A program made the position numbers and the translations under genes. Below, piece after piece: positions 1 through 7,947 of a stretch of 7,947 nucleotides of DNA (the first letter of the stretch is position 1; every line of letters begins with the position of its first letter). Under the pieces are notes generated by a model that was not told where the DNA came from, did no database searches, and was given only the letters and a program-made list of their open reading frames with translations. This DNA comes from a virus (lineage: Duplodnaviria; Heunggongvirae; Uroviricota; Caudoviricetes). Location of the stretch: the IMG/VR virus record IMGVR_UViG_2713896907_000004, positions 1 to 7,947 of that record; one strand, written 5' to 3'.

Positions 1-230
1 CACGGCCTGATATTGCTGTACGGTGGGTTATTCCAGATTGCACCGTGGCTTACCCACTCAGAATTGAGCGCGTCGTCGGCCTCAGTTAGCCAGTGAGCGC
101 ACAGAGCATTTTTGTCGCTCGCAGCTGAATCCAGCCAGAATCCAAACTCAATATCCAGCGCATCAAAAAGCCAGAGCGGCGTTTGCCAGCAGTCCTTGTC
201 GTGTGATGGCGTATTTGATTTGATAGTCAT
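1..230 (-). CDS. dam: Phage DNA N-6-adenine methyltransferase (Dam family), N-terminal part; gene runs off the window start
   Basis: Minus-strand ORF starting at ATG 230, overlapping the ninB TGA stop (ATGA junction). Hand translation: MTIKSNTPSHDKDCWQTPLWLFDALDIEFGFWLDSAASDKNALCAHWLTEADDALNSEWVSHGAIWNNPPYSNIRP, no stop before position 1. NPPY catalytic tetrapeptide and overall N-terminus resemble phage Dam methyltransferases (recalled, not searched). Confidence 0.7.
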   Translation of the reverse strand, partial: MTIKSNTPSHDKDCWQTPLWLFDALDIEFGFWLDSAASDKNALCAHWLTEADDALNSEWVSHGAIWNNPPYSNIRP

Positions 231-673
231 GCAGCCCTACCTTTTCGTTGTGACCATTCATACTCTCGCCAGGAGTCATCACTCCACCGCACGTTGCGCT
301 CTGAGCCGAACCAGAACATGATTTCGATAAGCTCAGTCATGCTGGCCTTCCGCATTTTGCTGGTACGCACGCCAAGCATGGCAACGCCACCGTCGATACC
401 AGGCACACTTCGTTGCTCCAGTTTTTTGGTCTTAAGCCACAGGGCAGTGAACAGGTCTTTCCAGTCTTCCGGCGCCAGCCGTTGACCATGCCATAGCACC
501 TGACGCGAAACATCGTTCAGCATCGGCCACATACGGTCATTCTGCGCTTTGCTGCGCTTGGGTTCTTTAACGTGGACTTCGTGGGGTGACTTGTCGTCGA
601 TGGGTAGTGAGAGAATGGCGTCTATGGCGTTATTTCTGATTGCTTCGTTGCGAAGCAGAAAGGTTTGCTTCAT
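227..673 (-). CDS. ninB: NinB-like recombination protein (lambda NinB/Orf family)
   Basis: Part of track ORF 227..775(-). Start placed at internal Met 35 (ATG at 673), preceded by GGAG. Product MKQTFLLRNEAI...WHGQRLAPEDWKDLFTALW...RNVRWSDDSWREYEWSQRKGRAA recalls lambda NinB in length and in the DVSRQV.WHG and WSD motifs. Confidence 0.85.
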   Translation of the reverse strand: MKQTFLLRNEAIRNNAIDAILSLPIDDKSPHEVHVKEPKRSKAQNDRMWPMLNDVSRQVLWHGQRLAPEDWKDLFTALWLKTKKLEQRSVPGIDGGVAMLGVRTSKMRKASMTELIEIMFWFGSERNVRWSDDSWREYEWSQRKGRAA

Positions 674-866
674 CTCCTGCTCTCCGGTTCCATTTTTCAG
701 CCGCCGCAGCAACTGATGGTGCCCATGCCCCCCTGGCTTCACAGAGGTCACATTCTGCATAGCCCCACACATCAATATTTATTCCGGCCTCACCCCACAG
801 ACGACCATTACCGCCGCAAAACGGACATTCTTTTAGCTTTGGCTGGGTTAATGATAGGTCGCTCAT
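630..866 (-). CDS. lar: Lar-family restriction alleviation protein (zinc-ribbon CPFCGG type)
   Basis: Internal start of track ORF 630..1073(-) at Met 70 (ATG at 866), preceded by AAGGAG at about 5 nt. Product MSDLSLTQPKLKECPFCGGNGRLW...ECDLCEARGAWAPSVAAAAEKWNRRAGDE has the CPFCGG ... C..C ... AxxxWNRR pattern of the Lar family. 3' end overlaps the ninB start by 44 nt in another frame. Confidence 0.7.
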   Translation of the reverse strand: MSDLSLTQPKLKECPFCGGNGRLWGEAGINIDVWGYAECDLCEARGAWAPSVAAAAEKWNRRAGDEANLSASQRSNQK

Positions 867-876
867 GCTCACTCCT

Positions 877-1092
877 TCACTTAAAATCCAGACTCCGGAT
901 AATTCTGTTGCGCTGAAACTCATTGTTGAGTTTGAACAACCGTCGAAGAACACGGTCACGCGGATAGCGTCGTGCGGCAGGTGAATGCTCATACAACTCA
1001 TCAAGCGGCAAACTTGACGATGAACGATACCGATACCAACGCACCAACTCTTCACGAAAATTAGCCCTGACAAGCTCAGCTATCGTACTCAT
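877..1092 (-). CDS. Hypothetical Arg-rich small protein (71 aa), first gene after the tR2-like terminator
   Basis: Track ORF 877..1092(-). GGAGGA about 8 nt upstream of the ATG at 1092. Its TGA stop lies inside the lar RBS. No recognisable family. Confidence 0.55.
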   Translation of the reverse strand: MSTIAELVRANFREELVRWYRYRSSSSLPLDELYEHSPAARRYPRDRVLRRLFKLNNEFQRNRIIRSLDFK

Positions 1093-1120
1093 TTCTTAAA
1101 TCCTCCAATTACTCTCCCCC

Positions 1121-1152
1121 AAATAAAAAGGCCTGCGATTACCAGCAGGCCT
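1121..1152 (-). terminator. Rho-independent terminator after the helicase gene (tR2-equivalent position)
   Basis: Minus-strand RNA reads AGGCCUGC-ugguaauc-GCAGGCCU followed by UUUUAUUU. Perfect 8-bp GC-rich stem (1129-1136 / 1145-1152) with the T-tract at 1121-1128. Sits about 28 nt downstream of the helicase stop. Confidence 0.65.
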
Positions 1153-1180
1153 GTTATTAGCTCAGTGATGTAGATGGTCA

Positions 1181-2617
1181 TCAGAATCCTCCTTTCTTCT
1201 TGGACTGCGGTTCCTCGCGTTCACGGCGGCGCATTTCAGCAGACTGTTGGTCTGTGTCATAAATAGCGCCATTTGCCTGTATGCAATACACCGTGCCGGT
1301 ATTGCCATGACGATTGAGGCGAAGGATTAGTTCGGTTTCACCAGGAGGAACGCTGTCATCAAAAGCACCTTCACGATGGATCCCCACCCAATAATCGCAA
1401 TCCTGTTCAATCTGCCCTGTATCTCGTGAGTCACTTGGTAATGGGCGTTTATTGGTTCGGCTTTCCAGTGCGCGGTTAAGCTGTGTCAGAAGCACAACAA
1501 CGCAATCAAGCTCTTTGGCAAGGTTCTTCAGTCCTTTGGTGATCATGCCGTAAGCAAGGTCGTTGCGATCGGCCTTTTCAGCGGTCATTAGTGTCAGGTA
1601 ATCGACCAGAATCATGCCAACACATCCTTTTTCTCGCTTGATTCGACGGCTTTCGCTGACGATTTGAGCCAGAGATAATCCCGGCGTGTCGTCGATGTAA
1701 AGCAGGTCGATTTCACTCAAGCGATTGGCTGTCTCGATCGCCCTGTTGAAGTCACCATCGTAATCACCCTGATAGCCGTCATCAGCGTCATTTGTCGCCG
1801 GAAGGTAAAAAATATTCGGGTTCACACCTGACTTCTGCCCTACCAGTTTTTCCAGTATCTGGTCACCTGGCATTTCAAGGCTGAACATCAGAGCGGGCTT
1901 TTTCTCATGCACTGCGCAGTTGATTGCCATCTGGCTGTATAGCGTCGTTTTCCCCATCTTAGGGCGAGCGCCAATGACAAACAGAGAGCCTTTCACCAGA
2001 CCTTTCGGTGACAGCATCCTGTCCAGCGATGGGATCCCTGTGCTCATTCCTCGTTGTTCGCCTGACGGGTCAAATCGCTTCTCAAGGTCGCTAACCCAGT
2101 CTTCCATGACCTCACCAAATGAGCGAAGGCCGCGACGCGATCCGGTTTTTGCATGGTCTGTCAGTTGCGTGAAAATCGACTGAATAGCTTCGTACTTCTG
2201 CGTTGCAGTCATTCCGTTGCGGGAATAGAGCAATTCCGTCGCTTCAGTCATGCGGTTGATGGCGTAGCGTTCCATTGCGGTTTCGCGAACCTGCATTGCA
2301 TAAGCAACGATGTTTGCTGCGCTTGGCGTGTTCTTTGCGATCTCAGCGATATAAGCAAAACCGCCAACAGACGCCGTTAACGATTTACGCTCCAGTTCAT
2401 CGAAAAGCGTCAGGCCATCTACTGGCTTTTGCTCACGGTGCATTCTGGTTATTTCTTCGAAAATGATTTTGTGTGGCCGGCTGTAAAATGAATCAGGCTT
2501 CAGCATCGCCAGAACCTTCTGGACGCGCTCACTGCTGTCATCATCCAGAAGCAATCCACCAATCACCGCCTGCTCTGCCTCGATGCTATGGGGCGGCGCA
2601 TAAAAATTATCGGTCAT
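1181..2617 (-). CDS. dnaB: DnaB-family replicative DNA helicase (phage-encoded, P22 gene 12-like)
   Basis: Track ORF 1181..2632(-). Start chosen at ATG 2617 ([25 protein letters not shown], preceded by GAGGGTG); the track Met at 2632 is the alternative. Classic DnaB N-terminus and Walker A GARPKMGKTT. Start overlaps the upstream gene's stop (ATGACCGATAA). Confidence 0.9.
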   Translation of the reverse strand: MTDNFYAPPHSIEAEQAVIGGLLLDDDSSERVQKVLAMLKPDSFYSRPHKIIFEEITRMHREQKPVDGLTLFDELERKSLTASVGGFAYIAEIAKNTPSAANIVAYAMQVRETAMERYAINRMTEATELLYSRNGMTATQKYEAIQSIFTQLTDHAKTGSRRGLRSFGEVMEDWVSDLEKRFDPSGEQRGMSTGIPSLDRMLSPKGLVKGSLFVIGARPKMGKTTLYSQMAINCAVHEKKPALMFSLEMPGDQILEKLVGQKSGVNPNIFYLPATNDADDGYQGDYDGDFNRAIETANRLSEIDLLYIDDTPGLSLAQIVSESRRIKREKGCVGMILVDYLTLMTAEKADRNDLAYGMITKGLKNLAKELDCVVVLLTQLNRALESRTNKRPLPSDSRDTGQIEQDCDYWVGIHREGAFDDSVPPGETELILRLNRHGNTGTVYCIQANGAIYDTDQQSAEMRRREREEPQSKKKGGF

Positions 2618-3506
2618 CGTGTTCACCCTCACGAACTTTCAGGTAGGTATTGTCGTTAAGCAGGAAATCAAATCCCTTTTTGTGCCAGACGGTTCCGCGC
2701 TGATGGTTTGGGCGCTCTTCGAACATCCATCGGCAATTTTCGCCTACGTAGCTCAAATAATTTCTCCAGTCCTGCATCGTGAACCCATGCCCGTCAAGCT
2801 GGCGGGTTATCACTCCGGCTTTGCGCCAGAACGTTCGGATCTGGTTTTTACGCTTGTCATTCAGTGCGCGGATTCTTGGCGCTTCAGGAAGGATTTCGTG
2901 GTAAGCATCGACAACATCCTGACAGCTGACGGGAGGTTTTTTCTTGTCAGACTTTTTGTCTGCTGTGGCACTCTCTAATACGTCAGTATTAGAGATAATA
3001 TTATTATATTCTTTATCTGTGGTAATTTGCTGGTAATCTGCTGGTACAGTATTGCTTACAGGCATTGGTATTGCTGGCTTTGAGGTGGTAATTTGCTGGT
3101 AATCTGCTGGTACAAAATTTGACTGATAATCGTCATATTTCTCTACCGAGAAAACTGAGAATTTACCGTGTGAAACCCAGTCAATCATGCCGAGTTTTTT
3201 GAACTTTCTAAGCAGGTACTGAACGCGATCTGGTTTGAGTCCTGTTTCAAACGCCAGAGAGTTTCTACCGCCAAGTAGCTTCCCTCTGCCTACCAGAATT
3301 TCTCCTGCGTCAGTCATTACATACTCAGGCGTATGCTTTGCTTTGAGGATTAAGTGAACCCACAGATGCGCTGCTTCTGCGTCCTTGTAAAACGGCACAT
3401 CCATAATTTTACGGTGCAGCAAGGCATACCCCTTACCGCTGCTTTGATGCGGTTGTTGTAGCCTTCTGGCCTCTCTGGCTTCGGCTAGATTAGATATGTT
3501 ACTCAT
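2607..3506 (-). CDS. Replication initiation protein (lambda O / P22 gp18 analogue)
   Basis: Track ORF 2607..3506(-). AAGGAG 7 nt upstream of the ATG at 3506. N-terminal winged-helix-like region, a central linker carrying the duplicated peptide [10 protein letters not shown], and a C-terminus resembling the conserved phage replication-protein C-terminal domain. Sits immediately upstream of the helicase. Confidence 0.8.
2972..3113. other. Putative origin of replication inside the initiator gene: AT-rich palindrome plus iteron-like direct repeats
   Basis: Two identical 29-bp direct repeats (3019-3047 and 3085-3113, gtggtaatttgctggtaatctgctggtac), each with GCTGGTAAT sub-repeats at about 11-bp spacing. 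Adjacent AT-rich stretch 2972-3016 holds a perfect 10-bp inverted repeat, tctctaatac-gtca-gtattagaga (2972-2995). Layout matches lambda ori inside O. Confidence 0.5.
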
Positions 3507-3645
3507 GACCTTTCTCCTTCTGCATCAGCTTCACTTTTTCCAACTCAGCCCGGAATCGACAAGGCTGCTTGAAGCTGGACAGGAAGCGATCACGTAGTAT
3601 GTGTTTGTGAATTTTGTCCTGGTAAGGACTGAGTTGTTTTGTCAT
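3499..3645 (-). CDS. Small hypothetical protein (48 aa) between cII and the initiator gene
   Basis: Not in the supplied track (too short). Hand translation from ATG 3645: [53 protein letters not shown] 7 nt upstream. Stop overlaps the initiator start (ATGAGTAA). Confidence 0.4.
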
Positions 3646-3654
3646 AATGACTCC

Positions 3655-3731
3655 TGTGGATTGATCCAGTAATTACCTCAGAACTCCATCTGGATTTGTT
3701 CAGAACGCTCGGTTGCCGCCGGGCGTTTTTT
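3655..3731 (+). ncRNA. oop: oop-like antisense RNA candidate (about 77 nt, antisense to the cII 3' end)
   Basis: Plus-strand extended -10 TGtCATAAT at 3640-3648 in the cII/initiator intergenic region, with a strong intrinsic terminator about 77 nt downstream inside the cII 3' end. Geometry as for lambda OOP. Start site is inferred, not observed. Confidence 0.4.
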
Positions 3732-3974
3732 ATTGGTTAGTCCATCAAGCGCATACTTAAAAGCCCTGCTAATCGGACTGATGTCTGATGCCATTCCAAA
3801 AGCACACAGAACCGAAGCAATAAATCTCCAGTCCGTTCTGCTTATCTTCGATTCATGACAGCCAATCATCTTTGCCAGACCGCGCTGGGTAAGCGTTGAC
3901 AGGTTGATAAGTAAATCTGTTTCTGCGCGATCAACGTCGCGCTGTGATAGTTTGCTGTAACTTGTTTGTTCCAT
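3678..3974 (-). CDS. cII: CII transcriptional activator (lambda CII family)
   Basis: Track ORF 3678..3974(-), 98 aa. C-terminal LTNKKRPAATERSEQIQMEF matches the lambda CII C-terminus as recalled. HTH-like ESKISRTDWRF in the middle. Sits between cro and the replication genes. Confidence 0.9.
   Translation of the reverse strand: MEQTSYSKLSQRDVDRAETDLLINLSTLTQRGLAKMIGCHESKISRTDWRFIASVLCAFGMASDISPISRAFKYALDGLTNKKRPAATERSEQIQMEF
3704..3731 (+). terminator. Rho-independent terminator on the strand antisense to cII
   Basis: Stem cgctcgg (3706-3712) / ccgggcg (3719-3725) with one G-U pair, 6-nt loop, extendable by two A-T pairs, followed by TTTTTTATT. Confidence 0.6.
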
Positions 3975-3984
3975 TTCTTACTAT
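3952..3984 (+). promoter_or_regulatory. PRE-like CII-dependent promoter candidate (TTGC-N6-TTGT at the cII start)
   Basis: Plus strand TTGC (3952-3955) - tgtaac - TTGT (3962-3965) overlapping the cII start region, with TACTAT at 3979-3984. Resembles lambda PRE TTGC-N6-TTGC and would point through cro antisense toward cI. Confidence 0.3.
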
Positions 3985-4008
3985 TTCCATAGTTAAATAA
4001 TCACTAAT

Positions 4009-4026
4009 ACTCATCTTTCGATGAGT
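4009..4026 (-). terminator. tR1-position hairpin between nutR and cII
   Basis: Minus-strand RNA ACUCAUC-GAAA-GAUGAGU, a perfect 7-bp stem with GAAA tetraloop, followed by an AU-rich tail AUUAGUGAUUAUUU. Weak intrinsic terminator or processing site. Confidence 0.35.
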
Positions 4027-4038
4027 GCTTAATTAGTT

Positions 4039-4073
4039 ACCGCGTTGTCGGCGGTGCAGATTGATAAAGAGCG
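4039..4073 (-). promoter_or_regulatory. nutR: boxA plus P22-type boxB
   Basis: Minus strand just downstream of the cro stop: boxA-like CGCTCTTTA (plus 4065-4073), then boxB hairpin ACCGCCGACAACGCGGU (plus 4039-4055). Matches the P22 nutR boxB as recalled. Confidence 0.6.
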
Positions 4074-4080
4074 ATGTTAC

Positions 4081-4308
4081 TTATGCAGCCAGAAGGTTCT
4101 TTTTGCTTATTTCAAGCATTTCGCTTGCTTGATATTTGCCACCAGAAATCTCTTCGATTTTTGATGCATATTTCGTTTTCCCAAAAAACTCAGTCTTAGG
4201 GAGGAAGCCGTTTTTAAGCCACTTATAGACAGCCCTTTCGCTAACTCCACAAGCCTTCGCAACTTCAGGGATGCCGACACCTTTAATCGGCTCATCAAGA
4301 TTTTGCAT
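4081..4308 (-). CDS. cro: Cro-like HTH regulator (first gene of the PR operon)
   Basis: Track ORF 4081..4341(-). Start chosen at internal ATG 4308 (MQNLDEPIKGVGIPEVAKACGVSERAVYKWLKNGFLP...), which has AAAAAGGG 8 nt upstream. The track ATG at 4341 falls inside the predicted PR -10. HTH motif present; divergent from cI. Confidence 0.7.
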   Translation of the reverse strand: MQNLDEPIKGVGIPEVAKACGVSERAVYKWLKNGFLPKTEFFGKTKYASKIEEISGGKYQASEMLEISKKNLLAA

Positions 4309-4320
4309 AGGAATACCCTT

Positions 4321-4393
4321 TTTCGTACTTTCAGTACGCATTATGATTGAACTGAAAGTTTTTGCAAGTGCTTTAGTATCGTACTCATGGTTC
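4321..4393. promoter_or_regulatory. OR-like operator/promoter region (PR leftward, PRM rightward)
   Basis: Minus-strand PR: -35 TTGCAA (plus 4362-4367), 16-bp spacer, -10 CATAAT (plus 4340-4345). Operator-like sites: cgtACTttcAGTacg palindrome (4324-4338), gaACTgaaAGTt (4349-4360), weaker taTCGTACtc (4377-4386). Possible PRM -10 TAGTAT (4374-4379) ends 7 nt before the cI ATG, which lacks a Shine-Dalgarno. Confidence 0.5.
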
Positions 4394-5094
4394 AGAATGA
4401 AAAAGTGCGCAAAGAATTCGCCCAGCGGCTAGCGCAAGCCTGTAAAGAAGCTGGTCTTGATGAACATGGTAGGGGGATGGCCATAGCCCGTGCCCTTTCT
4501 CTTTCGTCCAAAGGCGTTAGCAAATGGTTTAATGCTGAGTCTTTACCGCGTCAGGAAAAAATGAATGCGCTTGCGAAATTTCTAAACGTTGATGTTGTTT
4601 GGCTTCAGCACGGCACTTCGTTAAATGGAGCGAATGATGAAGATACTCTTTCATTTGTTGGCAAATTAAAAAAAGGGTTAGTGCGCGTGGTTGGTGAGGC
4701 AATTCTTGGTGTTGATGGTGCCATCGAGATGACCGAAGAGCGCGATGGGTGGCTCAAGATTTATAGCGATGATCCAGATGCCTTTGGTCTTCGTGTGAAA
4801 GGAGACAGCATGTGGCCCAGAATAAAATCAGGAGAATATGTACTCATTGAGCCTAACACCAAAGTATTCCCGGGTGATGAGGTGTTTGTCAGAACCGTTG
4901 AAGGACACAACATGATTAAGGTTCTTGGCTATGACAGAGATGGAGAATACCAATTTACAAGCATTAACCAGGACCACAGGCCTATAACGTTGCCTTATCA
5001 TCAAGTAGCAAAGGTGGAGTATGTGGCTGGTATTCTGAAGCAATCTCGTCATCTGGATGACATCGAGGCAAGGGAGTGGCTGAAAAATTCGTGA
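4387..5094 (+). CDS. cI: CI-like prophage repressor (N-terminal HTH, C-terminal S24 LexA-like peptidase)
   Basis: Track ORF 4387..5094(+), 235 aa. HTH near the N-terminus (GMAIARALSLSSKGVSKWFN). C-terminal GDSMWP serine motif and downstream Lys (NMIKVLG) typical of the S24 autocleavage domain. Divergent from cro with the operator region between. Confidence 0.9.
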   Translation: MVQNEKVRKEFAQRLAQACKEAGLDEHGRGMAIARALSLSSKGVSKWFNAESLPRQEKMNALAKFLNVDVVWLQHGTSLNGANDEDTLSFVGKLKKGLVRVVGEAILGVDGAIEMTEERDGWLKIYSDDPDAFGLRVKGDSMWPRIKSGEYVLIEPNTKVFPGDEVFVRTVEGHNMIKVLGYDRDGEYQFTSINQDHRPITLPYHQVAKVEYVAGILKQSRHLDDIEAREWLKNS

Positions 5095-5170
5095 CTTCAT
5101 CGTCACATAGCTGGTAACCAGTGGCCTGAAGAGACGTTTGGGTGATAGGAATGGATGTTAAGGATTAAGA

Positions 5171-6217
5171 ATGTCAGCGATTGATCAACCTGCGCAATAT
5201 GTTATCAAGTCAGAAGACGACTTTGTATCTTTTGTAACAGAAATGCTCGGAAGGAAGGATATCGACTCAAGCGACTTCACATTCCCTAGCGTAGTTTTCA
5301 GTGGATGGCCAAAGATCAATATTAATGTAAAAGGCGATCCAAATAGATATAATTCTTCATTGACTGCGTCAATGCTTTTTGGTATGGCAGAGCTTACGCA
5401 TGAAATACAAAAAGCATTTACGGTAGTCAGTCACAGCACTCATAATCGGCAGAAGCTAAAAGATGCAGAGAAAGGTTTGCTGGATATTGTCTACCGAATA
5501 AGCGAAGGCTCAAGCCAAGCGGATGGTGACTCAGATCCGATTGTAAACGGAGTGGTGACAGTGTTAACTCAAGCGATAGGCAAAATGACAGGAAGGCAAG
5601 CACTATGCGCCGTCGCCGCTATCGTCTTAGCTGCCAGCACGGTAGGCTATAAGTGGATCAATGAGTACTACGAAACACAGCGACATGACCAAGATTCTCA
5701 GGTGCAATTGGTGGAAAAAAGCACCAAAGCGGTAAACGAAGCACAAGACAATGTGCTCAAGTTGTTGATTAGCGGTCAAACAAACATTAGCAGAGAGGTT
5801 CTGGCTCACGGCGAGGATGGTAAAAGCAAGTTGCTTAAAAAGCTTGCTCAAGACTCGTCAGTTGAGAAGGTAACAATTGGTCAGAGAGTGGTAAATAGAG
5901 AACAGTTGAATACCTTAAACCAAAGGCAATCAATTGATCGAAAAAAGGAAACCAGAAGAGATAACTTTTATGTCACGGGCGTTCGTCGCTCGGGAGAAAC
6001 AAATCAGGACATAAATATTGACGTCACAAGGGTTTCAAATGGTGAATCTTTCACCATAAAAACCTCAGCCGACATAACATCTACTGATGAGCTTCTTGAG
6101 TTTTTGAATGCTGTAGCCAAAGAATCAACTGTTGAAATTTCATACCTAGAGGTTGTAGAAAATGGACACATTTCAACAGGACAATTGATAAATATATTCC
6201 CCAGCGAACCAGAGTGA
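5171..6217 (+). CDS. Hypothetical membrane protein (348 aa) in the rexAB-equivalent slot; candidate exclusion/defence moron
   Basis: Track ORF 5171..6217(+). AAGGA 6 nt upstream of the ATG. Same strand as cI, 76 bp downstream, with no terminator between. Visibly AT-richer than neighbours. One central hydrophobic segment (ALCAVAAIVLAASTVGY) and a charged Q/K/E-rich C-terminal half. No family recognised. Terminator follows. Confidence 0.8.
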   Translation: MSAIDQPAQYVIKSEDDFVSFVTEMLGRKDIDSSDFTFPSVVFSGWPKININVKGDPNRYNSSLTASMLFGMAELTHEIQKAFTVVSHSTHNRQKLKDAEKGLLDIVYRISEGSSQADGDSDPIVNGVVTVLTQAIGKMTGRQALCAVAAIVLAASTVGYKWINEYYETQRHDQDSQVQLVEKSTKAVNEAQDNVLKLLISGQTNISREVLAHGEDGKSKLLKKLAQDSSVEKVTIGQRVVNREQLNTLNQRQSIDRKKETRRDNFYVTGVRRSGETNQDINIDVTRVSNGESFTIKTSADITSTDELLEFLNAVAKESTVEISYLEVVENGHISTGQLINIFPSEPE

Positions 6218-6225
6218 TGCACTCC

Positions 6226-6254
6226 AAACCCGGCCTCAGCGCCGGGTTTTCTTT
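6226..6254 (+). terminator. Rho-independent terminator after the 348-aa gene
   Basis: Stem aaacccggc (6226-6234) / gccgggttt (6241-6249) with loop ctcagc, followed by TTTTCTTT (6247-6254). Begins 9 nt after the TGA stop. Confidence 0.7.
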
Positions 6255-6354
6255 GCCTCACGTTCGCCCTCCCATATTTAATAGCCGCAAATGTGGTAAA
6301 CCGCGAACCAACTCACCAGCAATACCCCCTCCAACTACAGACCAATCTGCAGCA

Positions 6355-6382
6355 TTTACAAAAATAAATTTCCTTATATATC
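6355..6382 (+). promoter_or_regulatory. Near-consensus sigma70-like promoter candidate in the AT-rich spacer upstream of OL
   Basis: -35 TTTACA (6355-6360), 16-bp spacer, -10 TATATA (6377-6382), plus strand, pointing toward nutL and N. Confidence 0.35.
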
Positions 6383-6418
6383 AAAATTATATCTCGCTGC
6401 ATTAATAAATCACAAAAA

Positions 6419-6464
6419 TTTCGTACCAATAGTTCTTGATAATATCGAACTATTGGTTCATTAT
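6419..6464 (+). promoter_or_regulatory. OL/PL-like region: operator motifs co-linear with OR plus a PL candidate
   Basis: TTTCGTACcaatAGTtC (6419-6435) and GAACTattgGTT (6447-6458) match the OR motifs TTTCGTACtttcAGTaC and GAACTgaaaGTT in the same order with near-identical spacing. 11-bp perfect inverted repeat accaatagttc / gaactattggt (6425-6435 / 6447-6457). PL candidate: -35 TTGATA (6436-6441), 17-bp spacer, -10 CATTAT (6459-6464). Confidence 0.45.
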
Positions 6465-6510
6465 TGTCACATCAGCAGGACGCTGGAAGCCAAACGGAAC
6501 AGATTGGCAG

Positions 6511-6544
6511 GCTCTTTAACTTCGATGGGGCGCTGACAAAGCGC
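6511..6544 (+). promoter_or_regulatory. nutL: boxA plus P22-type boxB
   Basis: boxA-like GCTCTTTAAC (6511-6520), then boxB hairpin GCGCTGACAAAGCGC (6530-6544), which is the P22 nutL boxB as recalled. Upstream of the N-like gene. Confidence 0.7.
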
Positions 6545-6572
6545 AAACAGATACCAAACGAGATGGGTTTGG

Positions 6573-6655
6573 CGGTGTGTAGCTCAGCAGGTAGAGCGGA
6601 TTCGTTGGCTAAGCCGTGGAATCGCGTCACCAGTTCAAGTATGGTCACACCACCA
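6573..6655 (+). other. tRNA-like element, non-canonical (degenerate tRNA remnant or structured N-leader RNA)
   Basis: Strong D-arm signature TA-GCTC-AGCAGGTA-GAGC. T-arm-like ACCAG-TTCAAGT-ATGGT with a G53/A61 mismatch. Acceptor cggtgtg/cacacca pairs 6 of 7. The anticodon stem gattc/gaatc encloses a 15-nt loop rather than 7. CCA follows at 6653-6655. Confidence 0.3.
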
Positions 6656-6681
6656 AAGCCATTTCACATGGAGAAAAGAAA

Positions 6682-6801
6682 ATGCTGGAAATTATCACCA
6701 ACCCAATTCTCGGTGGGGCAATCATCACTTTCGCAATCGGCATCGGATTCACTATCTGGTCTGAAGTAGATGACTGGATGTGGGAGCGCAAAAACAAATA
6801 A
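6682..6801 (+). CDS. Small hydrophobic peptide (39 aa, single predicted TM helix) in the N leader
   Basis: ATG at 6682 with GGAG 8 nt upstream. Product MLEIITNPILGGAIITFAIGIGFTIWSEVDDWMWERKNK: hydrophobic core then a charged Trp-rich tail. Inside the longer track ORF 6616..6801. Lies between nutL and N. Confidence 0.4.
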   Translation: MLEIITNPILGGAIITFAIGIGFTIWSEVDDWMWERKNK

Positions 6802-6841
6802 TAATCGACACACATTCATGTGTGTCTTCACGGAGGTCATC

Positions 6842-7150
6842 ATGACGGTTATCGTATACGGAAAATCAACATTTGCAGGAAATGCCAAAACTCGCCGTCA
6901 TGAGCGGCGCAGAAAGCTGGCTATCGAGCGTGATTCCATCTGCAACATCATCGATTCGATCTTCGGCACAGACAGTGAGGAAGCTGTTCAGGAAGAACCG
7001 AGAAAGCGTTTAAGCCTTTCTGAAAAAGCAATATCACTCGGCATCATTAGTAAATCAAATACAGATGCGAATGGCGGAAGCGTTTGCCTGCCCGAAGTTG
7101 CACTGTATGCTGCTGGTTACAGGTCAATGAAATCAATTACGGCGAGATAG
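6842..7150 (+). CDS. N: N-like transcription antiterminator (P22 gene 24 type, arginine-rich motif)
   Basis: Internal start of track ORF 6770..7150 at Met 25 (ATG 6842), with GGAGG 5 nt upstream. N-terminus MTVIVYGKSTFAGNAKTRRHERRRKLAIERD carries the arginine-rich boxB-binding motif of P22 N as recalled. Cognate boxB present in both nutL and nutR. Confidence 0.85.
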   Translation: MTVIVYGKSTFAGNAKTRRHERRRKLAIERDSICNIIDSIFGTDSEEAVQEEPRKRLSLSEKAISLGIISKSNTDANGGSVCLPEVALYAAGYRSMKSITAR

Positions 7151-7152
7151 AA

Positions 7153-7419
7153 ATGACTAGCAAACAAGTATCATATAAATGCTATTGCCCTTTATGTGGA
7201 AGAAAATTCAGCGCCAAGGCAGCATGGAAGCATATCAATGATTATCATCCAAAAGCATCAGAACGTGAGTTGATGATGATAAGAGATGTAAAACGAGAAA
7301 AAATTTCTTTCGCAACAAAGCCACTAAACGCCAACAAAAACGCAATATTGTATCAAATGCATCGTTCAAGTGGTCCAGATTATTCTGGAGGGCTTCCATC
7401 TCTTGGAAAGAAAAAATAA
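7153..7419 (+). CDS. Hypothetical small protein with a Cys2-His-type zinc-binding motif (89 aa)
   Basis: Internal start of track ORF 7084..7419 at Met 24 (ATG 7153), immediately after the N stop. Weak RBS (GAGATAGAA). Motif CYCPLCGRKF...HINDYH. No family recognised. Confidence 0.5.
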   Translation: MTSKQVSYKCYCPLCGRKFSAKAAWKHINDYHPKASERELMMIRDVKREKISFATKPLNANKNAILYQMHRSSGPDYSGGLPSLGKKK

Positions 7420-7552
7420 CCACGCTCATGCTGGTTTTTAATGACATAAATAACCCTATTTACTACCGCAAGCCACGCAGTGAAATGGGTGTGACTTGTG
7501 TTGGTCGCCAGAAAATGAAATTAGGCAGCAAACCACTTATTTGAGGTGATAT

Positions 7553-7639
7553 ATGGAAGAAGAATTTGAAGAGTTCGAAGAGCATCCGCAGGATGTGATG
7601 GAACAATACCAGGACTATCCGTATGACTACGACTATTGA
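7553..7639 (+). CDS. Very small acidic peptide (28 aa), possibly coupled to the next ORF
   Basis: ATG 7553 with GAGGTGA 4 nt upstream. Hand translation MEEEFEEFEEHPQDVMEQYQDYPYDYDY. Overlaps the start of the next ORF by 17 nt. Could be coding or only a coupling leader. Confidence 0.3.
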   Translation: MEEEFEEFEEHPQDVMEQYQDYPYDYDY

Positions 7640-7823
7640 TAAAAATCAATGGTGTGGACAATTCAAACGATGCAATGGATGCAAGCTGCAATCGGAATGC
7701 ATGGTTAAGCCTGAAGAAATGTTTCCTGTAATGGAAGATGGGAAATATGTCGATAAATGGGCAATACGAACTACGGCAATGATTGCCAGAGAACTTGGTA
7801 AACAGAAAAACAAGGCTGCCTGA
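7623..7823 (+). CDS. Hypothetical Cys-rich small protein (66 aa, CxxxxxCxxCxxxxxC)
   Basis: Track ORF 7623..7823(+). Start overlaps the preceding acidic ORF. Four Cys in CGQFKRCNGCKLQSEC suggest a zinc ribbon. Followed by a terminator. Confidence 0.5.
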   Translation: MTTTIDKNQWCGQFKRCNGCKLQSECMVKPEEMFPVMEDGKYVDKWAIRTTAMIARELGKQKNKAA

Positions 7824-7842
7824 TGGTGGCCTTTATTTTTGG
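7813..7842 (+). terminator. Rho-independent terminator after the N-downstream small genes
   Basis: Stem aggctgcc (7813-7820) / ggtggcct (7825-7832) with two G-U pairs, loop tgat (contains the TGA stop), followed by TTATTTTTGG. Confidence 0.5.
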
Positions 7843-7947
7843 CATAAACAACAGAATAAACACAGCACTGTGTATTCATTCCAACGAGTGAATACACGGA
7901 GCAATGTCGCTCGTAACCAAACAGGAGCCGACTTGTTCTGATTATTG

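Follow-up and report, generated by a model that had tools for sequence, protein, structure and literature searches.

Which function is served by a gene that fills the interval between the cI repressor and the leftward early promoter of a lambda-like prophage, the place where lambda carries rexAB? Here, we address this question for an open reading frame (ORF) of 348 amino acids (aa), located at 5171..6217 on the + strand of a 7,947-nucleotide (nt) stretch of a Caudoviricetes virus (IMG/VR record IMGVR_UViG_2713896907_000004, positions 1 to 7,947; this whole stretch is hereafter called the window). Judging by the ORF list and a Pfam scan, the window comprises the immunity and early region of a lambda-like prophage. 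An initial annotation had proposed that the ORF, as an uncharacterised membrane protein, is a candidate for a single-gene exclusion or defence function. We find this interpretation plausible and partly supported: the gene is probably an anti-phage cargo of the immunity region, and it belongs to a large and unstudied protein family.

A word-indexed search recovered 53 close homologues from the Enterobacterales (annotated without exception as hypothetical, and lacking any Pfam domain), and comparison with an 87%-identical copy yielded a non-synonymous divergence (dN) of 0.073 against a synonymous divergence (dS) of ~1.8. Considering these homologues and the resulting dN/dS of ~0.04, the ORF is a real gene rather than a chance reading frame, and the substitution pattern indicates that it is under purifying selection. 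While a second word-indexed search added almost no further homologues, an exhaustive profile search returned 916 cluster representatives (50% identity clustering) at E <=1e-3 and 541 at 1e-10. Members were mostly 300-380 aa long (among the 150 matches listed), and those that could be named came from Yersinia, Serratia, Xenorhabdus, Pseudomonas, Pseudoalteromonas and one Pasteurella phage; in E. coli the gene is rare (18 of 5,426 complete genomes). The protein matched PHROG 6191 (annotated as 'unknown function') over its full length (E 5.8e-36; aa 7-342 against positions 5-331 of the 338 in the profile), a family that was also matched by 144 of the 144 aligned relatives. The earlier statement that no family could be recognised thus holds for characterised families, but the protein is no orphan. 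Pfam, NCBIfam and PADLOC scans of the protein returned sub-threshold noise only, no defence model of PADLOC-DB 2.0 matched it at E 1, and the 144 relatives had no Pfam or PADLOC family in common (scattered single PADLOC matches only). A weak PDB sequence-profile match to MotB (E 0.0036), extending over the hydrophobic helix and the charged linker, was treated as compositional and discarded. In the literature on mEp332, phi458, PhiR12, cI-downstream defence genes and prophage proteins combining a transmembrane helix with an OB fold, we found no study of the family. In two IMG/VR prophages the gene was split into two ORFs (246 and 78 aa in L031:3060-4108; 165 and 124 aa in L047:1270-2300), which are probably frameshifted pseudogenes or assembly errors.

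The gene follows a cI-type repressor of 235 aa (4387..5094, + strand; Pfam Peptidase_S24 E 4.4e-16, HTH_3 E 1.2e-5), presumed to be the upstream gene of a shared operon. Its ATG lies 76 bp after the cI stop on the same strand, and is preceded at a distance of 6 nt by the Shine-Dalgarno motif AAGGA (5160..5164, + strand, read from the sequence), in agreement with the good ribosome-binding site first described. The absence of a terminator between the two genes was likewise confirmed, as a scan of 5095-5170 found none on the + strand (the hairpins there are short and lack a T-run). Comparison with the lambda locus places the ORF, as had been claimed, in the slot that holds rexAB in lambda, between cI and pL; a pL-like promoter, nutL and N lie downstream.

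To what extent the gene is a unit of its own can be read from its borders, which we defined by reciprocal blastn breakpoints (phages with other cI types versus phages with the same cI). Phages with other cI types (phi458 and the IMG/VR loci L016, L017 and L034) had exactly 5118-6254/6257 in common with the window, at ~99% identity, and nothing else nearby; this block thus also occurs with two further cI types. Where phages had the same cI but carried other cargo, homology was lost at 5117-5145 and regained at 6228 or 6345. Because these breakpoints are reciprocal, they delimit a mobile cargo cassette of 1,137 bp (5118..6254, + strand; ribosome-binding site, ORF and terminator) that starts 24 bp after the cI stop, 53 bp 5' of the ATG, ends at the terminator and holds one ORF only. 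With regard to the signs by which a moron is recognised, sharp present/absent breakpoints between near-identical phages were found (5117/5118 and 6254-6272); as for a promoter and terminator of its own, the terminator is present but common to other cargos, and the scan found no sigma-70 promoter-like site upstream. The AT-richness that had been put forward as a sign of horizontal acquisition is marginal: the guanine-cytosine (GC) content of the ORF is 42.1%, 3.5 points below that of cI (45.6%), with N at 45.7% and the window at 46.1%.

The terminator at the end of the cassette (6226..6254, + strand) is intrinsic, with a 9-bp G+C-rich stem, a 6-nt loop and, after the stem, the T-run TTTTCTTT, and the 50-nt stretch around it folds at -20.1 kcal/mol. 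It had been described as the gene's own; the structure is there, but its sequence (6226-6269) also follows an unrelated cargo in Lambda_2E9 and, with 95% identity of the terminator, a distant homologue in mEp332. Since the same sequence closes other cargos, it is, by sequence comparison, a fixed boundary of the slot, like lambda t_imm, and not private to the ORF. On the other side, a scan (of sigma-70 consensus sites only) found no promoter-like site on the + strand of the gap between cI and the ORF. As no such site was found, and as the shared sequence reaches no further than 53 bp 5' of the ATG, the simplest reading of the sequence is that the gene would be transcribed with cI in the lysogen, from the cI promoters. 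Inside the ORF, a terminator-like hairpin with a T-run (5358-5374, + strand) falls on the codons of the conserved SLTASMLFG motif and is probably a by-product of the coding sequence.

The slot itself is hypervariable. Although the cro-cI region is 97-98.5% identical at the DNA level to that of PhiR12_2, Lambda_2E9 and Stx2a phages, our survey encountered four different cargos behind this one cI allele, which agrees with the diverse cargo initially expected here. The first is the ORF of the window, and the second, in PhiR12 phages, belongs to its family at 25% identity. In PhiR12_2 (L002:3983-5008) the slot protein is only ~25% identical although the cro-cI region agrees with that of the window at 98.5% identity, which points to allele replacement at conserved flanks and not to divergence in place. 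The third cargo is a 299-aa protein of Lambda_2E9 (L014:2425-3324), with no Pfam or PADLOC match; the fourth, in Stx2a phages (L062:1356-2702), consists of a DUF3024 protein (E 2.4e-31) and, after it, an NYN-domain protein of 285 aa (E 6.8e-9), a pair that could be an uncharacterised defence or toxin module. The clean limits of the cassette also reveal the way in which cargo is exchanged here: recombination takes place at a short sequence just after cI and at the common terminator.

Where the relatives sit was counted by hand from a table of 52 loci. At 21 of them the gene has a cI-type repressor 5' of it on the same strand, as its direct neighbour in 19 cases and across a gap of 500-700 bp in 2; at 6 it is convergent with an integrase at the prophage end, and at ~10 it is found at the prophage end near dinI or tail-fibre genes. 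Single cases include a metagenomic prophage in which repressor, a 214-aa protein, the family member, a 162-aa protein and integrase stand in a row, a copy that adjoins a P2-type gpD gene, and, by reading of ORF translations, one copy apparently among baseplate genes and another apparently beside smpB. The Serratia member P0052 is flanked by icd and by an integrase with 76% identity to IntE of e14, and in the e14 element of E. coli K-12 the same icd-intE position is held by lit, a T4-exclusion peptidase. The family thus occupies two classical abortive-infection slots (lambda rexAB and e14 lit), which supports defence by location. A Pseudoalteromonas copy was found in a non-prophage island, 3 kb from AbiEi/AbiEii. 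In Pseudoalteromonas sp. P1-9 (L053:3069-10191) the family member, next to AbiEi/AbiEii, stands among three large genes (432, 577 and 679 aa) with no Pfam or PADLOC match, and this locus may be a defence island with several uncharacterised genes. In a Yersinia prophage, an additional 132-aa ORF with no family match (L011:4499-4897) separates cI from the family member; it is missing from the similar locus L012.

The architecture of the protein was inspected in an AlphaFold model built with 144 diverse sequences (pLDDT 87.2, pTM 0.76); an earlier run with 23 close sequences had been poor (pLDDT 64) and its Foldseek matches weak. In the model, aa 1-138 (5171..5584, + strand) form an alpha/beta domain that is the most conserved part of the protein and for which structure searches found no fold match. 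Its near-invariant residues among the 144 relatives (F43, W46, P47, G55, L96, G113, S114, M139) look structural rather than catalytic, and the family alignment showed no conserved catalytic residues. The domain is followed by a single hydrophobic helix, a predicted membrane anchor (aa 141-163; 5591..5659, + strand), modelled as aa 141-155, running on to ~aa 163, with a low-confidence linker at aa 160-177. The one central hydrophobic segment that had been noted is therefore present (aa 144-163, Kyte-Doolittle mean 1.72), and it is the only one in the protein. The charged, Q/K/E-rich C-terminal half described initially is, in the model, a structured helical hairpin plus an OB fold: a hairpin or stalk (aa 174-227; 5690..5851, + strand; helices 178-201 and 205-226) leads through a small beta unit into a C-terminal OB-fold domain (aa 257-343; 5939..6199, + strand), identified as such by the matches of its structure to OB proteins and by a five-stranded barrel that has a helix between strands 3 and 4. 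The best of these matches are periplasmic or secreted folds (SilF/CusF and the B subunits of AB5 toxins). Relative to the 87%-identical copy, the stalk and the linker at aa 229-256 (nt 5855-5938) evolve fastest (dN reaches 0.106 in aa 166-228 and 0.172 in aa 229-256, versus ~0.05 in the two globular domains), and over the wider family variation is greater in the C-terminal half than in the N-terminal domain. Across the family alignment the OB domain has a median net charge of -1, neutral to acidic, and an aromatic content of only 6.6%; being neither basic nor rich in aromatics, it argues against nucleic-acid binding.

The helix is short and Ala/Gly-rich, and with a Hessa-scale sum of +0.68 it is borderline for insertion. 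Its place and hydrophobicity are kept in the 144 relatives while its sequence varies (median Hessa-scale sum 0.46), and a Gly with aromatic residues after it is frequent at its end. As position and hydrophobicity are preserved without sequence, and Gly and aromatics mark its end, the helix is probably a membrane anchor, and the protein as a whole is probably, by its sequence features, a single-pass protein of the inner membrane. In the close subfamily the N-side flank of the helix carries 2-4 K/R and 0-2 D/E, and the C-side flank 0-2 K/R and 2-4 D/E. Because of these flank charges and of the lack of an N-terminal signal peptide, we favour with reasonable confidence a topology in which the N-terminus lies inside and the C-terminus outside (N-in/C-out). 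The aromatics at the C-terminal end of the helix and the periplasmic or secreted nature of the best OB matches are in line with such an orientation.

From the foregoing we lean, by a narrow measure, towards an anti-phage function at the level of the envelope, exerted either by blocking entry or by abortive infection. The most likely single mechanism, which we put forward tentatively, is a block of entry by the periplasmic part of the protein. In such a scheme the gene would be a self-contained prophage cargo, transcribed in the lysogen along with cI; of its product, the conserved 140-aa N-terminal domain would face the cytoplasm, and the helical stalk and C-terminal OB head would face the periplasm. 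Stalk and head would bind a part of the DNA-delivery apparatus of the incoming phage, or an inner-membrane receptor used by that phage, and thereby stop genome entry (superinfection exclusion at the envelope), while the role of the cytoplasmic domain would be to hold the protein in place, to bring about its oligomerisation or to link it with a host partner. Entry block is slightly favoured because of the topology and of the more variable C-terminal half; abortive infection follows closely because of the rexAB, lit and AbiE locations and the precedent of AbiP and PdpSau.

Several points weigh against the entry block, or against the premises on which it is built. The argument for a defence or exclusion function, plausible as we consider it to be, is solely one of location, and cargo slots also hold non-defence genes. 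A large and highly conserved cytoplasmic domain would be unneeded for a simple periplasmic block, and the occupants of the reference slots (RexAB, BstA, Lit) are abortive-infection systems and not entry blockers. Promoter scans found no convincing sigma-70 promoter upstream of the copies that are not behind cI, which leaves the expression of these copies unexplained, and our literature search found no functional or expression data on any family member. With regard to topology, the charge bias is nearly gone in the wider family (K+R 2.2 upstream versus 2.8 downstream), and the pTM of 0.76 may mean that AlphaFold packs the N- and C-terminal parts together, an arrangement unfit for opposite sides of a membrane; it is for these two reasons that our confidence in the N-in/C-out orientation goes no higher.

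A membrane protein with the same domains could act later in infection. Abortive infection via the membrane, which we regard as possible though doubtful, would have the protein sense infection, oligomerise through its helical region and depolarise or permeabilise the membrane, the cell dying before phage release; functionally, it would then be like RexAB, AbiP or PdpSau. Both reference slots hold abortive-infection genes (lambda rexAB and BstA, e14 lit), and one homologue lies beside AbiEi/AbiEii. The resemblance to lambda RexAB is in arrangement (after cI, same strand, before oL/pL and N, terminator at the end), presumably in expression from the repressor promoters in the lysogen, and in the possession of a membrane component, RexB there and one hydrophobic helix here. 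RexB has several membrane helices and the window protein one; furthermore, lambda uses two genes (a sensor and a multi-pass membrane protein) where there is one here, with an OB fold and an N-terminal domain without fold match. With one helix per subunit, a large oligomer would be needed to form a pore. The absence of conserved catalytic residues would fit a pore or scaffold effector, and the high pTM, taken at the level of the model, would fit a compact resting state in which the hydrophobic helix is sequestered. An OB domain placed in the periplasm would nevertheless be blind to cytoplasmic phage triggers.

The same slot between cI and N is a mosaic hotspot that also holds BstA (PMC8585504). 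The only characterised proteins combining an anchor with an OB fold, AbiP of Lactococcus and PdpSau of S. aureus prophages, cause abortive infection, and like the window gene they are single genes with no enzyme signature, a membrane anchor and a reported OB fold (PMC10127798). In infected cells, PdpSau alters the potential and the permeability of the membrane (PMC10127798); it is likewise a prophage accessory gene, which in phage 53 sits between endolysin and integrase, also a cargo position. Their anchor, however, is N-terminal, whereas that of the window protein is central (aa 141-163) and preceded by an extra conserved 140-aa domain; their OB domains are basic and cytoplasmic (the C-terminal domain of PdpSau being described as positively charged and cytoplasmic; PMC10127798), whereas the one studied here is neutral to acidic, aromatic-poor and probably periplasmic. 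Homology was found to none of RexA, RexB and PdpSau, as hhalign comparisons of the family alignment gave probabilities below 0.5% throughout (RexA 0.3%, RexB 0.4%, PdpSau as phage 53 ORF016 0.2%). The likeness of the family to e14 Lit is one of position (Serratia P0052 has the same position and orientation by an IntE-like integrase): Lit is annotated as a peptidase, and the family has neither a Pfam match nor conserved catalytic residues.

By description, the protein may also be set beside superinfection-exclusion proteins (P22 SieA, T4 Imm, HK97 gp15, lactococcal Sie2009 and TP-J34 Ltp), which are membrane proteins that prophages express and that lack enzymatic motifs. Some of them, such as Sie2009 and Ltp, have their genes in the lysogeny module, close to the repressor or integrase. 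To our knowledge, all five are smaller, and none combines an OB fold with a large cytoplasmic domain. GenBank labels the PhiR12 and mEp332 homologues 'T2SS GspM containing protein', and the type II secretion system (T2SS) protein GspM (PF04612) does resemble them in having one predicted membrane helix followed by a C-terminal domain. We rejected this assignment: the window protein scores 13.7 bits versus a gathering cutoff of 27.8, the PhiR12 and mEp332 proteins have no match, and the C-terminal domain is an OB fold and not the GspM fold, which is ferredoxin-like.

An envelope protein of lysogenic conversion that acts apart from defence (in stress tolerance, envelope integrity, colonisation, or the blocking of conjugation or pili) is unlikely, if worth keeping in mind. 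Virulence and fitness genes are also found in cargo slots, PADLOC scans gave no defence-family signature, and the best OB matches include periplasmic metal-binding and sugar-binding proteins. Metal binding in the manner of CusF/SilF, which we take to rely on a Met-based site, was ruled out since the OB domain of the window protein has no methionine and lacks such a site. The member genera differ widely in lifestyle, which argues against a host-niche-specific factor, and the gene occurs in two slots noted for anti-phage cargo. The phi458 prophage was reported to affect biofilm formation and virulence, in a paper that makes no mention of the gene (PMC9701743).

We consider it rather improbable, albeit of wide consequence, that PHROG 6191 is a widespread single-gene system spanning the envelope, in which stalk and OB head would sense the phage and signal over one helix, and the cytoplasmic domain, with its new fold, would execute defence. 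Were this so, the mode of trans-membrane sensing would be, at the same low level of confidence, unrelated to those of Zorya, Kiwa and RexAB.

Less probable still is a soluble or peripheral protein, its helix buried in a bundle or oligomer and its OB domain binding a cytoplasmic ligand (phage single-stranded DNA, RNA or protein). The pTM of the model would suggest confident interdomain packing, and the short, Ala/Gly-rich helix with its borderline Hessa-scale sum would be in line with burial. Against burial, the helix is apolar on every face and flanked by charges and then aromatics, and it is its place and hydrophobicity, rather than its sequence, that the 144 relatives keep; the OB domain, moreover, is not basic and has few aromatics. 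A RexA-like modulator of the prophage's own lysogeny-lysis switch, a role assigned to lambda RexA by Thomason et al. 2021 (as cited in PMC12315714), would suit a gene directly 3' of cI and apparently co-transcribed with it, but is very improbable because a 99%-identical protein is linked to three cI types and family members often lie far from any repressor (by int, at prophage ends, by tail genes, in a non-prophage island), and homology to RexA was not found.

The remaining features of the window frame the slot. The - strand carries ninB, a DnaB-type helicase, an O-like replication protein, cII and cro, and the + strand carries cI, the ORF discussed here, N and ral (7623-7823). Downstream of the cassette, the promoter scan and the sequence revealed an operator-like 11-bp inverted repeat (6425-6435 and 6447-6457, + strand) around the -35 hexamer of a pL-like promoter (TTGATA-17-CATTAT; 6436-6464, + strand); by position, 6425-6464 would correspond to oL/pL. 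A nutL site read from the sequence comprises a boxA-like element (GCTCTTTAAC; 6511-6520, + strand) and a P22-type boxB (GCGCTGACAAAGCGC; 6530-6544, + strand), identities that we presume from the nut sites of P22 and lambda. The far side of the slot is marked by a P22-type antiterminator N (6842..7150, + strand; Pfam N_peptide E 6.5e-37), and directly 3' of N an ORF (7153-7419, + strand) shows a C2H2-like motif (CYCPLCGRKFSAKAAWKHINDYH) and no Pfam match.

Between nutL and N, the pL leader includes a variable segment (6578-6837) that is missing in the phages with the same cI. At its left edge starts a stretch (6571-6656, + strand) that looks tRNA-like by eye, with an acceptor-like stem that ends in CCA, TAGCTCAGCAGGTAGAGC in the manner of a D-arm, and TTCAAGT as a loop; its RNA fold reaches -31.3 kcal/mol (z-score -2.5), and a tRNA was ruled out, as ARAGORN and Rfam gave no match. 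Within the segment lies a 39-aa ORF (6682-6801, + strand; MLEIITNPILGGAIITFAIGIGFTIWSEVDDWMWERKNK). It has GGAG as its ribosome-binding site, encodes one hydrophobic helix and may represent another small cargo gene.

RexAB and BstA are both known from the region between cI and N (PMC8585504), as Lit is from the icd-int slot of e14. The family described here occurs in both slots and in other cargo positions, with 916 cluster representatives and named members in several gammaproteobacterial genera, yet it has no Pfam family and no entry in a defence database. The phage phi458 is available and lysogenises E. coli MC1061, so that the function of the family would be cheap to test. Should the family prove to be anti-phage, a common single-gene system would be added to those carried by prophages, a new conserved domain would receive a function, and the finding would bear on phage therapy and on host-range prediction in E. 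coli, Enterobacter, Klebsiella, Yersinia and Serratia.

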